Of a stretch of DNA of 20,000 nucleotides, positions 12,254 to 16,620 are shown piece by piece (within the stretch, counting starts at the first letter, position 1; every line of letters starts with the position of its first letter). Both the position numbers and the translations under genes were made by a program. Source of the DNA: an uncultured virus (IMG/VR IMGVR_UViG_3300043434_000216) (Duplodnaviria > Heunggongvirae > Uroviricota > Caudoviricetes); IMG/VR virus record IMGVR_UViG_3300043434_000216; one strand, 5' to 3'. Under the pieces are notes generated by a model. It saw only the letters and a program-made list of their open reading frames with translations. It was not told the DNA's origin and did not search any database.

Positions 12254-12418
12254 ATCTATTTTGGTTGCGGGCGGCGGCGGGCGGCGCGGTGTCCCAATTC
12301 TTTTTTTTTCTTTTGTCTTCTAAGGGAAGCAAGCTTCCTTTTAGTTTCAGTTTTTTGATTGTCTTTACGCTCCGCGGAATAGTATATATTAATCTTATTT
12401 ATTATATTATATATTATG

Positions 12419-12513
12419 TGGTAAAATCTTACCAGGGGTATGGTCAAATTCTACCAGGGGGTATGGTAAAATCTTACCAGGGGGGTATGGTATAATTCTA
12501 CCATAGGGGTACC
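12419..12513. repeat. Four tandem imperfect palindromes separated by G-tracts, next to an AT-rich tract
   Basis: TGGTAAAATCTTACCA (12419), TGGTCAAATTCTACCA (12441), TGGTAAAATCTTACCA (12464), TGGTATAATTCTACCA (12488). Spacers are G4TA, G5TA, G6TA. Almost pure A/T at 12379-12418. Confidence 0.9.
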
Positions 12514-13185: not shown

Positions 13186-13869
13186 AAGATAGATAGATAG
13201 TCACATATATCCAATTTCTATCTCCATATGTTTCCACTGCCAGATTGCTTTAAACGCAGTTTTTAGACCGCGTAGGTGGATTGTTAGGGTTATATATACT
13301 ATCGGACGGTTCAGCGACATCAACGACAAACGACTTTTTGCAATGGGGTGGGGTCATATTTAGTAATCCAAATTCCAAAAATTAGGTCAATGTATCCTTA
13401 TGATACAATAACAATTTTCCAATGTATCACTTTGGTACAATACCACTCGGTCGGTGTGTTGCATCCTTCCCCCATACCTATAGTGCGAAAGAAATGTGTC
13501 CAAGGTTGCAAGGAGCAAAGGTAAATGTGCATAAAATGTGGCTTAGGATTATCTGAGGGCGCATTTATCCTAGGGGAATTATCCTCCCCCACATCACACC
13601 CTAGAAAAACCTCCCATTTTACTAGCATTCAATTTAAGGGGGCAAATCTTTGATTTAAGACATTTTCGTGTTTAAATGTCCATTCTATAAGCCCTATGCG
13701 AGATAATTGATTAGACGCGAAATCGGGGTATTTTGGAGGGTATATTATTATTATACATATAGTATATAAAGGGGATTTCTTGGAATAGTACTAAATCGAT
13801 ATATTTTCGTTGTATTATTCTAAGAAAACAGCCCATTCGTCGACACATTTGGGGATTTCGTCTCATCTT

Positions 13870-13902
13870 TTTGGAGGTAAAGCATTAGATATACTAACTT
13901 TG
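13870..13902 (+). promoter_or_regulatory. Bacteroidota housekeeping-type promoter driving the rightward (early) region
   Basis: TTTG (13870-13873), 21-nt spacer, TAACTTTG (13895-13902): full -33/-7 consensus. Confidence 0.8.
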
Positions 13903-13907
13903 CATCA

Positions 13908-14150
13908 AGCAAACGGGGAAAAAGTTCTCCAACGGCTTCCACCCCGACACATACGGGGGGTAACAGGTGTGCCTACTCGAAAGAGTCCACCTTAGTGGCT
14001 AACCCCCACTCGGAAAGGCGAAAGGTTACCCACGAGGATGGTGGATTCCTGAGTATAAAGGTTTGAAGTTTCAGAAGAACGGGTTACTAAATAAACCTAT
14101 CGCCGAACACACGGCGTCAACAAAGTCCCACACATACAAGGGTTATGTAT
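13908..14150 (+). ncRNA. Unidentified structured RNA (family not recognised)
   Basis: GC-enriched tract right after the promoter with many helices: CGGGG/CCCCG, GGGGGT/ACCCCC, AGGTG/CACCT, ACTC-GAAA-GAGT, ACTCGGAA/TTCC(T)GAGT, CCAC/GTGG, AGGTTT/AAACCT, CGCCG/CGGCG. Confidence 0.6.
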
Positions 14151-14151
14151 A

Positions 14152-14207
14152 CGATTAGACAATGGCTTGCATATTTATATGAGTGGTTCGATTCCGCTAC
14201 TAATCGC
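14152..14207 (+). ncRNA. tRNA-like mini-element (acceptor-like stem plus T-arm), not a canonical tRNA
   Basis: 7-bp stem CGATTAG (14152-14158)/CTAATCG (14200-14206) enclosing AGTGG-TTCGATT-CCGCT with a canonical T-loop. No proper D-arm, anticodon loop or CCA. Confidence 0.55.
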
Positions 14208-14227
14208 TAACTTAAAAACACACTATT

Positions 14228-14461
14228 ATGAAATTTGTATCAAACTATCTTGTAGGCGGAATTGTTCACGCAAAAACAAAATGCGACGCGCTTGTAACTA
14301 TTGCAAAACTATATGATTACCCTGATTATAAGATTTATTGGGAAGGGAATACGCCTTATATGCTACCATTTGCTCAATCTCGTAGAGTATTTAAGGTATA
14401 TGCATCACATTCTAAAATGGGAAAGGCTTTAAATGCTGAACGCAAAAGATATGGAGTGTAA
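14228..14461 (+). CDS. Hypothetical basic protein, first gene of the early region
   Basis: 77 aa ORF with an A-rich leader; its stop codon lies in stem I of the hammerhead. Confidence 0.7.
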   Translation: MKFVSNYLVGGIVHAKTKCDALVTIAKLYDYPDYKIYWEGNTPYMLPFAQSRRVFKVYASHSKMGKALNAERKRYGV

Positions 14462-14504
14462 CTGACGAGTCCTAATGGACGAAACGCCTACGGGCGTCTT
14501 ACAC
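14456..14504 (+). ncRNA. Hammerhead ribozyme, type I
   Basis: Stem I GTGTAA/TTACAC; core CTGACGA; stem II GTCC-TAAT-GGAC; GAAA; stem III CGCC-TACG-GGCG; GTC cleavage triplet with predicted cut after C14498. All core nucleotides are present. Confidence 0.95.
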
Positions 14505-14506
14505 AT

Positions 14507-14530
14507 ACCCTTTCCGTGTAGGTTAACGGA
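14507..14530 (+). promoter_or_regulatory. Small hairpin/pseudoknot-like motif, copy 1
   Basis: ACCCTT-TCCGT-GTAGGTTA-ACGGA, 12 nt before ATG 14543; similar to 16327-16352. Confidence 0.5.
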
Positions 14531-14542
14531 CTAGCACACACA

Positions 14543-14959
14543 ATGAGAATGTTATTTAATCAAGCAATCGAAATCACAAAAGAACAAGCTATTAACCACT
14601 CAAGAAATGAGTACAATCCAAGAGAATGGAAGTGTATAGTAGAAAGATTTAGTGAGAGATTTGAAGACGCAATCTTTTACGACCTTGGCTTAGGGAGGTA
14701 CAATCAAGATGAAGTTGGCGTAGTGTATGTTACTAACGGAGTTCGCTACTTTAAAACACTTCAGTATTCGTCTTGCCTAAGCGCATACGATGGCATAGGA
14801 CAAATAAATTTATATGAGGATGGAATTAGCTTTACAAAGTTTATTGATGACAACGGGAACGAGGGCTACCTTTCTGCTAGAAACCCCGTAACGGCTAACT
14901 TCTTACGAGTTATGACTTTAAGAACAAAAGACTTTATTGTAGCATCTGCAAGCATTTAA
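14543..14959 (+). CDS. Hypothetical protein
   Basis: 138 aa ORF, ATG start, co-oriented in the early cluster. Confidence 0.75.
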   Translation: MRMLFNQAIEITKEQAINHSRNEYNPREWKCIVERFSERFEDAIFYDLGLGRYNQDEVGVVYVTNGVRYFKTLQYSSCLSAYDGIGQINLYEDGISFTKFIDDNGNEGYLSARNPVTANFLRVMTLRTKDFIVASASI

Positions 14960-14963
14960 ACCT

Positions 14964-15050
14964 ATGAAATCCTTAATCGCATTCTTCTTCGCGCTCGCTA
15001 TCTATATGGTAGGGAGTGCTTTAATTCAAATCATTCAAATCTTATCTTAA
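14964..15050 (+). CDS. Small hydrophobic membrane peptide (28 aa)
   Basis: Not in the ORF track: MKSLIAFFFALAIYMVGSALIQIIQILS; fills the gap between neighbours. Confidence 0.55.
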   Translation: MKSLIAFFFALAIYMVGSALIQIIQILS

Positions 15051-15060
15051 TTCTATTCTT

Positions 15061-15249
15061 ATGAAACCATTTATCATCGTCATCGTTAGTACATTCCTAG
15101 GTCTTTACGCTATCTGCGCATTCGTTTCTTGGGACATATCAGTAATGGCACACGCTACCGAGAATGGACGTGTAGCCTACATTATCGGAGGGTTTTTCCT
15201 TAGCGGTATTTTTTCTTGTATGGTAGCATCTTTTCAGTCAGAACAATAA
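15061..15249 (+). CDS. Small membrane protein with two hydrophobic segments
   Basis: 62 aa with two hydrophobic stretches separated by a short polar loop. Confidence 0.7.
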   Translation: MKPFIIVIVSTFLGLYAICAFVSWDISVMAHATENGRVAYIIGGFFLSGIFSCMVASFQSEQ

Positions 15250-15371
15250 TGAAGACCTTTAACAAAGTAATCGTTTTCTTCCTAGGCGAAGAAGCGAGCC
15301 AAGACAAAGGTGAACTAATCACCGCGTTAATCATTGCGACGCTATGCGCGTTCCTTTTACCTTTAATGTAA
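15249..15371 (+). CDS. Small membrane peptide (40 aa)
   Basis: Not in the ORF track: MKTFNKVIVFFLGEEASQDKGELITALIIATLCAFLLPLM; TAATG stop/start overlap with the upstream gene. Confidence 0.6.
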   Translation: MKTFNKVIVFFLGEEASQDKGELITALIIATLCAFLLPLM

Positions 15372-15401: not shown

Positions 15402-16319
15402 ATGGCAACTCAATCAGAATTAATCGACAATATCAATAACACAATCATCGAAGGACTACAAGCTAAGGGTTTACAATGGTTCAAACCTTTCAAAGATAGC
15501 TCTACCAATCAATGGTCTGCTATCAACTCACAAGGTAAGCCTTACCGCGGTATTAATCAGTTCATCCTTTCAGCTAAGGCAATCGAAAAGGGATGGATTA
15601 ACAAGTGGTTCACCTTCGCGCAAGTATCTAAGCTAGGCGGACGTGTTAACAAGGGCGAGAAGTCTACGGATGTCTACCTTTGGAAAGTAAACTTCGCGGT
15701 AGAAATCGCAGGTAAAACCCAATACTTCGCCCGCCTTGAGGACGTTCCAAGTCACCTACAAAAGCAAGCCAAGAAGGCGTTCTTCTTGCAGGTGTTCAAG
15801 GTGTTCTCTATCTCACAAAGCGACCTACCAATCGATACCCCATCACAACCTATTGAGGTCACTGAATTAGAGGCAGACGCGCACGCCGAAGCTATCCTTC
15901 AATCGTGGTGCAAAGAGGTAACGCTTAAGCATAGCGGACAAGGTCGGGCTTACTACTCTCCTAGCGGTGACTACATTCATATGCCCGCTAAGACTACTGA
16001 GCAATGGAAATCAAACGGAGACTACTACAAGGTATTCTTTCACGAAGCTATCCACTCCACGGGTCACGCGTCACGCCTTAATCGCCTAGACAAAACAGCA
16101 AACTTTGGCTCTGATGAGTATAGTAAGGAGGAATTGGTCGCTGAGTTAGGCGCGCTGTATTTAGAGGCTATCACGGGCATACAAACAATCGTAGACGACG
16201 TCAAAAACTCGCAAGCATATATCAACGGATGGATTAGCAAATTGAAGTCTGACCCTAAGTTAATTCTGAGTGCATCTACTAAGGCACACGAGGCGGTAGA
16301 GTTAATCCTATCTAAATAA
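15402..16319 (+). CDS. ardC: ArdC-family antirestriction / ssDNA-binding protein with zincin-like metallopeptidase domain
   Basis: N-terminal WFKPF...GKPYRGINQFIL...WFTFAQVSKLGGRVNKGEKST; C-terminal AYYSPSGDYIHMP...FFHEAIHSTGHASRLNR...FGSDEYSKEELVAELGA with HExxH. Confidence 0.92.
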   Translation: MATQSELIDNINNTIIEGLQAKGLQWFKPFKDSSTNQWSAINSQGKPYRGINQFILSAKAIEKGWINKWFTFAQVSKLGGRVNKGEKSTDVYLWKVNFAVEIAGKTQYFARLEDVPSHLQKQAKKAFFLQVFKVFSISQSDLPIDTPSQPIEVTELEADAHAEAILQSWCKEVTLKHSGQGRAYYSPSGDYIHMPAKTTEQWKSNGDYYKVFFHEAIHSTGHASRLNRLDKTANFGSDEYSKEELVAELGALYLEAITGIQTIVDDVKNSQAYINGWISKLKSDPKLILSASTKAHEAVELILSK

Positions 16320-16326
16320 CATCTTG

Positions 16327-16352
16327 ACCTTGCGGTGTATAGGTAACCGCAA
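16327..16352 (+). promoter_or_regulatory. Small hairpin/pseudoknot-like motif, copy 2
   Basis: ACCT-TGCGGT-GTATAGGTA-ACCGCA; ACCT can pair with AGGT in the loop; 7 nt before ATG 16360. Confidence 0.5.
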
Positions 16353-16359
16353 TAATACT

Positions 16360-16620
16360 ATGAACGTAAGACAAATTCTAGAAACCAACAACGAGTTGCA
16401 GATGCGTTATATCTATGAGATTAACAAGTTTTGCAAGGAACGTATGTACTCAGAATCAGGCGACAAAGAAGCGCCCAAGATTCGCCAAATTATGGACATC
16501 TTCTTTTGGGTTGGTAAGATATCCGAGAAGCAAATGGATTGGGTAGTACGCTACGCCACCAAGAATCAAATCCGCGTGGTAACATCAGATTCCACTATCA
16601 GCAATTTAGACCAAGCATAA
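16360..16620 (+). CDS. Hypothetical protein
   Basis: ATG 16360 (MNVRQILE) preferred to the track's TTG at 16324, which runs through the hairpin motif. Confidence 0.7.
   Translation: MNVRQILETNNELQMRYIYEINKFCKERMYSESGDKEAPKIRQIMDIFFWVGKISEKQMDWVVRYATKNQIRVVTSDSTISNLDQA

Follow-up and report, generated by a model that had tools for sequence, protein, structure and literature searches.

The 20,000-nucleotide (nt) stretch of DNA analysed here, hereafter the window, is the terminal 20 kb of a 52-kb contig of an uncultured tailed virus (IMG/VR record IMGVR_UViG_3300043434_000216; completeness ~81%). At the head of its early operon, around an open reading frame (ORF1) of 77 aa and upstream of the anti-restriction gene ardC, lie a promoter, an untranslated leader closed by a pseudoknot (PK-A), a mimic of the top half of a tRNA (t-element), a hammerhead ribozyme and a further hairpin or pseudoknot (PK-B). 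Each element that a preliminary description of this DNA had named around the 77-aa ORF is present. Comparison with relatives indicates that this modular RNA architecture is real and conserved. Hammerheads and tRNA mimics replace each other at three matched junctions. We consider it likely that the early operon is made of interchangeable cut-and-cap modules, and that its transcript is processed by ribonucleases P and Z (RNase P and RNase Z) and by self-cleavage. This reading is supported because covariation is found in the hammerhead, in PK-A, in the t-elements and in stem 2 of PK-B.

Relatives and host

Searches with ArdC and GroES gave 32 close loci, which together with the window (W) make 33 clade sequences. 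Relatives are labelled L001 and so on, and 100 distant ArdC loci, partly redundant, were handled separately from the clade. In 24 of the 33 sequences a t-element leads the early region. Another 4 are truncated, and the last 5 are bare, i.e., they have the same promoter slot without leader, t-element, hammerhead or PK-B. Counts over the 24 regions overstate their independence because these regions collapse into 22, 21 or 16 groups at 90, 70 or 50% overlap. The gene content between the promoter and ardC varies from phage to phage, and the RNA modules recur at the gene heads. No cultured-phage record holds the complete cassette, and Agrobacterium phages give just a hammerhead-sized match.

We infer that the host of this freshwater phage belongs to Bacteroidota, from the kinship of the large terminase subunit (TerL) and because the TTTG/TANNTTTG promoter form is typical of this phylum (PMC6847099). 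The closest cultured relatives by TerL are 31% identical and are mostly phages of Flavobacterium and Cellulophaga, the nearest being the Flavobacterium elemo phages.

Strand placement is very regular, as all 12 hammerheads and all 102 PK-B copies of the clade sequences are on the early strand. Structure descriptors run over the early strand of the genome of W found 1 t-element, 1 hammerhead and 2 PK-B, against 0.83, 0 and 0.1 per genome in shuffled genomes (both strands). The order of the elements put forward in the preliminary description holds in that a tRNA mimic ahead of the first gene, then a cutter and a hairpin or pseudoknot, are conserved and covarying in relatives, although the five bare relatives have none of it.

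Hammerheads and tRNA mimics at the same junctions

The t-element heads the first gene in the 24 early regions. In 17 of them we found another cutter, either a hammerhead or a second, minimal mimic, before ardC or before a gene of the DUF932 family. The junction before the 138-aa gene (ORF2 of the window) has a hammerhead in W and L005 and a tRNA minihelix in L053 and L152. Ahead of the DUF932 gene we found a hammerhead in L050 and L058, a minihelix in L059 and L061, and neither in L053. Finally, the junction before ardC is occupied by a hammerhead in L154 and L157 and by a minihelix in L162 and L163. The window shares the exact order of t-element, 77-aa family, hammerhead and PK-B with L007 and L050, whose leaders and mimics are different. 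By analogy, the predicted self-cleavage of the hammerhead is a functional label for whatever element replaces it. We found no publication in which hammerheads and tRNA mimics trade places or in which PK-B is described, among texts that included PMC5737381, PMC10690425 and bioRxiv 2026.10.21.760802; the motif supplements of the first two may hold these motifs.

The hammerhead of the window is of type I (14456..14504, + strand) and matches Rfam family RF00163 over this whole interval with 36.4 bits, for a gathering score of 34. It has the CUGANGA, GAAA and NUH core, which is invariant among the copies, and three stems of which stem I is open; the cut is predicted after C14498 of a GUC. In an alignment of ten hammerheads (9 distinct), 100% of the pairs are kept, each of the three stems shows two-sided changes, and none of 500 shuffles reaches the score. 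The element is thus, by its sequence, a member of the family, for which self-cleavage is predicted. The predicted hammerhead cuts spare the upstream stop codon, and 9 of 12 fall 10-16 nt ahead of PK-B. The distant ArdC loci contain 9 t-elements and 22 hammerheads, all on the ardC strand.

Rfam searches over the window, 14 related and 10 further loci gave nothing besides hammerheads and sub-threshold fragments. We discarded a theta or hepatitis delta virus (HDV)-like ribozyme, for which there is no Rfam match, the mimic being followed by 21 unstructured nt and the ORF. Likenesses to twister, pistol, HDV-like ribozymes, S-adenosylmethionine riboswitches (SAM-II/V) and cyclic di-GMP riboswitches, judged by eye against the consensus forms, were rejected on a wrong core order or the lack of an Rfam match.

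The t-element

The tRNA mimic (14153..14206, + strand) consists of an acceptor stem (14153-14158/14200-14205), a T arm (14182-14198) and the discriminator G14206, followed by CUA. More precisely, it has a 6-bp acceptor, an A.A mismatch and a 5-bp T stem, and shows the geometry of a substrate, with the acceptor stacked on the T arm, a T loop and a D-loop-like GG. Its sequence makes it a candidate substrate of RNase P at the 5' side and RNase Z at the 3' side. The fold alone is not significant (z -0.9), and the case for the t-element and the leader rests on the relatives because single-sequence folding is weak.

The evidence from relatives is much stronger. T-loop-anchored elements are on the early strand in 38 of 40 cases, and an upstream acceptor partner with 6/6 pairs is found for 32 of 34 distinct elements, against 144 of 950 cross-pairings. 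When only Watson-Crick pairs are allowed, the figures are 25 of 34 and 15 of 950. The acceptor sequence varies; therefore it is the shape that is kept, not the identity. The linker holds a D-loop-like GG in 35 of 35 mimics. Those of the leader type have G+1 (22/24) and C-N-A after the discriminator (24/24: CCA 6, CUA 14, CAA 4), and the mimic of the window has these ends too (G+1, G-CUA). None of the 11 internal mimics has G+1 and none has CCA. The CCA sequence is an antideterminant for RNase Z, according to the enzyme rules given in PMC4919913, and these ends fit leader-type mimics that are RNase P-like and internal mimics that are RNase Z-like.

Two known types of tRNA-like RNA were rejected. 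A canonical tRNA gene is not found by ARAGORN, gives no RF00005 match and would have to accommodate a variable linker of 9-36 nt. The pair G3-U70 is the alanine identity pair of transfer-messenger RNA (tmRNA). As for a tmRNA tRNA-like domain, this pair occurs in 0 of 35 mimics, ARAGORN finds none, and relatives give only 17-nt T-arm matches far under the cut-off.

Some further arrangements were observed around the mimics. The internal minihelices at L003:4737, L008:3879, L011:3930, L152:2599 and in L053 (reverse strand) begin 1-2 nt inside the upstream UAA stop. The reverse strand of L099 has five near-identical tRNA minihelices in 2.7 kb, all between genes, four of them followed by a small hairpin and one of the five overlapping the upstream stop. 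A 16-mer that we take to be parS-like, judging from the parS consensus, occurs 9-11 nt past the t-element in 9 related loci (L009:3935, L154:2932, L155:1017, L156:269, L157:446, L160:2769, L163:2450 and 2698, and the reverse strands of L059 and L061). Its role may be to bring host ParB to the DNA that enters the cell first. The genome of W has no such 16-mer, even with 2 mismatches allowed.

PK-B and translation starts

PK-B (14509..14530, + strand) is a 4-bp hairpin with a conserved loop and a possible 3-bp pseudoknot, placed 10 nt past the hammerhead cut and 12 nt ahead of the ATG at 14543. The window has a second copy (16328..16350, + strand), 9 nt ahead of the ATG at 16360 and with no cutter before it. 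Stem 2 pairs at 4/4 positions in 99 of 104 matches found by the anchors only, with at least six sequence variants. These pair counts exclude a MAFFT alignment, which misregistered the 3' strand. Within the descriptor set, stem 1 (CCU/AGG) never changes; in 6 loci, a related variant has G-C in place of C-G, and a few copies are without stem 1. Hence, of the downstream pseudoknot of the preliminary description, the hairpin stands, since stem 2 covaries, but the knot is unproven, stem 1 being invariant.

An ATG follows 7-14 nt after PK-B in 100 of 102 clade copies. The motif is also found beyond the clade, in 87 viral stretches, including unrelated phages, and in 11 cellular ones (L065-L149, L237-L247). 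Among 64 distinct non-clade copies, 44 have a downstream ORF. The distance to its start is fixed at 7-11 nt in 21 of the 25 that lack a Shine-Dalgarno-like word and ranges over 15-57 nt in 18 of the 19 that have one. In L073, PK-B precedes a hammerhead, and in L091 it lies inside a tRNA array.

PK-B covers positions -12 to -15 in Bacteroidota, the region to which ribosomal protein bS1 has been proposed to bind in this phylum (PMC6847099), and S1 of Escherichia coli binds a 5' pseudoknot of a processed mRNA (PMC7708055). The motif may serve as a translation aid or in 5'-end protection. A canonical copy has no Rfam family match, and neither copy of the window matches DUF805 or DUF805b (RF03081, RF02914), even at E<=10. 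Judging from these searches, PK-A and PK-B belong to no catalogued family among those tested.

The untranslated leader

The leader is a composite. Its 5' part (13907..14054, + strand) comprises a 5'-terminal hairpin (13907-13938), a hairpin (13939-13961) and a long stem (~13968-14055), with weak structural support; it is common to L011 only, with one compensatory change (13945/13955). Pattern scans for further homologues of this half found the L011 and L058 contigs and two chance matches, nothing else. The 3' module of small hairpins (14055..14126, + strand; model R1) starts at a possibly decayed boxA (14057-14069), is common to L011 and L058 and has weak matches in L005, L006 and L163. It is followed by PK-A (14127..14150, + strand), an H-type pseudoknot with stems of 3 and 5 bp that ends 2 nt ahead of the tRNA mimic. 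The nine distinct copies of PK-A are 100% paired, and 6 of 8 pairs are changed on both sides (1/3 and 5/5), such that both crossing stems covary as in an H-type pseudoknot. PK-A, which the preliminary description had not separated, is on this comparison the sole well-supported part of the leader.

The free RNA of ~240 nt proposed in that description does not survive as a conserved unit. L011 (94% identical) is the only relative with the entire leader in common, and L058 has the 3' 90 nt. The 18 leaders compared span 133-422 nt and are mosaics with no common core besides boxA and small hairpins. Whole-leader folding does not discriminate leaders from upstream controls (minimum free energy z-score of -2.4 for 13907-14152 and -2.1 for the upstream control). 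A long-range pairing of 14005-14018 with PK-B (12/14) is lost in L011 and was taken as chance.

A boxA of the type found in rRNA operons (rrn) occurs once per leader, between promoter and t-element, in 19 of the 24 regions (16 with the main pattern and 3 hand-added variants; examples are L001:3112, L008:3123 and L009:3713). The same box is in 16S-23S spacers in 4 of 6 matches among 61 genomes of the presumed host phylum. These occurrences suggest that antitermination is a likely function of the leader in this phage group. The leader of the window does not contain the boxA pattern, and its 3' module aligns weakly (E 0.013) with a boxA-headed segment of L163; an antitermination role is unproven for this boxA-less leader. 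The five leaders without boxA (W, L005, L006, L011, L058) are the ones with PK-A at or near the t-element.

A model of the early transcript and its alternatives

The elements suggest the following course of events. Host RNA polymerase would start at ~13907, and host RNase P would cut at 14152/14153, ahead of the tRNA mimic, freeing a leader of ~245 nt with a 5' hairpin and PK-A closing its ends, PK-A presumably protecting the 3' one. The mRNA of ORF1 would be left with the mimic as a cap, or be trimmed further by RNase Z at 14206/14207. Self-cutting of the hammerhead at 14498/14499 would then make ORF1 monocistronic, with its stop codon kept and a structured 3' end. These three positions match within 1 nt those of the preliminary description. 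The downstream mRNA would begin with a 5'-OH, 10 nt and PK-B, and a 5'-OH end resists RNase E. PK-B would stabilise the 5' end and/or aid ribosome loading, probably via bS1, on mRNAs that lack a Shine-Dalgarno sequence. Each early gene would have an mRNA with a separate half-life and a 5' end not set by the adjoining genes, which would also allow gene shuffling.

Several observations weigh against this model. The loop II-stem I tertiary contact of the hammerhead was not identified in the 12 copies, which have a U(G)AAU-like loop II and, in 12/12, an A ahead of stem I. Position 7:66 is paired in 14 of 24 leader-type mimics and mismatched in the window. With flanks and the start of ORF1 included, acceptor pairing of the window t-element is 0.02-0.3, against 0.97-1.0 for the isolated element, which is thermodynamically marginal and has a competing fold that takes in the ORF1 start. 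RNase P cutting at the five minihelices that begin inside a stop codon would damage the upstream mRNA, and only 76 of the 151 genomes sampled from the presumed host phylum gave RNase Z. The idea of a cap for the cut mRNA was overstated, as PK-B heads many early genes without a cutter in front. RNase J (TIGR00649) was found in 0 of the 151 genomes and in 10 of 14 controls; therefore PK-B is no RNase J roadblock in that phylum, and an element resistant to this enzyme, like exoribonuclease-resistant RNAs (xrRNA) or coremin, was rejected, which speaks against an exonuclease block of that type. Finally, the RNA module system is optional or dispensable, because five relatives are bare and 7 of 24 regions have no internal cutter. 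The bare relatives are interspersed in the GroES tree, not a single clade, and their first gene starts ~30-50 nt past the promoter slot. In two of them, L049 and L056 (reverse strand), plain GC-rich hairpins lie between some early genes, as judged by eye, without any module.

A more tentative extension of the cut-and-cap model is that the early operon is run like pre-rRNA, with a leader that loads the host rRNA antitermination complex by way of boxA (decayed here, or replaced by a different RNA module), RNase P/Z mimics equivalent to hammerheads, PK-B standing in for an A-rich bS1 site, and a non-stop switch. We regard it as possible, at rather long odds. If true, hosts that lack Shine-Dalgarno sequences would meet in PK-B a translation-start module of universal use that takes the place of the A-rich bS1 site, and in some relatives RNase P cutting within the upstream stop codon would yield a non-stop mRNA and turn the first gene off.

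Among the alternatives, the one that survives best, while still unlikely, holds that the modules chiefly serve gene shuffling, with PK-B (22-25 nt) and its neighbours as recombination anchors and self-contained translation starts, and with cleavage incidental. Nearly every relative has a different set of genes between promoter and ardC, with modules recurring at gene heads, PK-B is near-identical in sequence with up to 11 copies per locus, and early regions with and without modules are mixed in the GroES tree, all of which this view would explain. Yet what recombination requires is identical sequence; it has no need of compensatory pairing, of intact catalytic cores or of the geometry of a tRNA. 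The gene content of bare relatives varies too, without modules.

Slightly less probable is that the cuts serve to release small trans-acting RNAs, namely the leader or the mini-tRNA, and not to tune the mRNAs; such RNAs would regulate host proteins or act on them as decoys, possible targets being defence nucleases, SmpB and RNase P. The leader would be the first RNA made, is non-coding and 133-422 nt long, and in W, L005, L006, L011 and L058 has as its last element a covarying pseudoknot, placed at the predicted cut or close to it. However, the mosaic leaders lack a common core besides boxA and small hairpins and match no Rfam family, the mimics have no anticodon arm and no G3-U70 (0/35), and hammerheads, which replace mimics, cannot act as tRNA decoys. 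DNA-level signals or relics without RNA function (attachment-site tRNA-gene fragments, parS-linked modules or selfish repeats) are very improbable, as the parS-like 16-mer of the nine loci and a window t-element and leader that are not significantly stable alone would suit them, but the strict placement on the sense strand, covariation that tolerates G-U pairs, a 5' acceptor strand changing in step with 15 different 3' strands and a hammerhead core that is intact would not.

Promoter and neighbouring genes

The promoter of the Bacteroidota -33/-7 type (13870..13902, + strand) has TTTG at 13870-13873, a 21-nt spacer and TAACTTTG at 13895-13902. The -7 element to start spacing of 4-5 nt in PMC6847099 predicts transcription from 13907/13908. 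There are 6 matches of this kind over both strands of the 52-kb genome, so a match by itself is weak; a -7-like box occupies the same slot in most relatives. Boxes of the TTCGTCGAC type (window 13836-13866), frequently doubled, precede the -7 element by 39-100 nt in module-bearing and bare relatives alike, and could possibly be an operator or a genome-end signal. The word ACACATAC occurs at 13947, 14130 and 14501, these three copies in the cassette being among five genome-wide on the early strand; L011 does not keep all three.

Leftward genes of the window encode the portal, TerL, an SU10-type capsid protein and a GroES-like protein, and small genes and ardC run rightward from ~13.9 kb. ORF1 (14228..14461, + strand), whose stop codon is inside stem I of the hammerhead, has no Pfam or PHROG family, 6 close homologues and Atlas matches <0.8. 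ORF2, of 138 aa (14543..14959, + strand), has no family in the Pfam and PHROG searches either. Further downstream in the same operon, ArdC (15402..16319, + strand) matches PF08401, PF18818 and phrog_7245. The host-takeover role ascribed to these genes is thus putative and derives from their position and from ardC, since the 77-aa and 138-aa ORFs match no family. Three short hydrophobic ORFs precede ardC (14964-15371), of which one of 40 aa (15249-15371) is kept even in bare relatives. Four direct repeats with a 20-27-nt unit and 22-24-nt spacing (12413-12508) lie between the GroES-like gene and a 186-aa gene upstream of TerL.

Comparison with known systems

The early transcript of phage T7 is cut by RNase III into gene-sized mRNAs with structured ends, and phage SPO1 has a host-takeover module. 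T7 uses RNase III stem-loops, whereas the modules described here are tRNA mimics and ribozymes. Host RNase P cuts phage RNAs that are not tRNAs (M3 RNA, C4 antisense RNA and T4 gene 32 mRNA; PMC11143913), but those are single RNAs and here the predicted substrate would be a repeated punctuation module. Theta ribozymes (Kienbeck et al. 2024, PMC10879173) also associate a self-cleaving RNA with a tRNA-type element in Bacteroidota phages. They are HDV-like and located at the 3' end of real tRNAs, which they trim, whereas our hammerhead is 250 nt off the mimic, with an ORF between. The 5' pseudoknot of tisB +42 mRNA, an S1-binding standby element (PMC7708055), resembles PK-B in lying near the 5' end of a processed mRNA, and PK-B could likewise recruit S1 and the 30S subunit. 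The tisB element acts ~100 nt upstream in E. coli, whereas the 22-25 nt of PK-B end 7-14 nt ahead of the start codon.

According to a paper of 2019 (PMC6765202), the question of what self-cleaving ribozymes are for in bacteria and phages had yet to be settled. The natural swaps of hammerhead and mimic before the same gene, together with module-free relatives, are ready comparisons that make the idea of processing into separate mRNAs testable, and they point to a probable task for phage tRNA mimics that have no anticodon. PK-B, widespread and uncatalogued, keeps a fixed distance to the start in genes without a Shine-Dalgarno sequence and a free one in genes that have it, which gives a handle on start choice in Bacteroidota and a possible expression part for such hosts.

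The closest parallels come from two systems. Plant mitochondrial t-elements (Forner et al. 2007, PMC1920247) are non-canonical tRNA-like folds with a GGUUCRANYCC T arm that set mRNA ends via RNase P and RNase Z. They are organellar with mapped ends, whereas ours are from phages, are known from sequence and are exchanged with ribozymes. Clustered hammerheads that flank single prophage genes cut in vitro, and one array does so in E. coli (Perreault et al. 2011, PMC3088659). The prophages described there share with our loci a hammerhead at a gene boundary of a phage operon, variable neighbours and a proposed cutting into gene-length mRNAs, their anti-restriction neighbour being ardA where ours is ardC. 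The cassette, put forward in the preliminary description as the best candidate for an undescribed system, is therefore better seen as a variant, as hammerheads flanking phage genes, including an anti-restriction gene, are already published in that work. What differs from it is that our hammerhead belongs to a pair of cutters that can replace each other, its counterpart, a tRNA mimic, presumably being meant for host enzymes, and that a recurring hairpin or pseudoknot comes after and a long modular leader before. By these likenesses, the architecture resembles hammerhead-punctuated phage operons and organellar t-elements, and is best regarded as a variant of these and not as a separate system.

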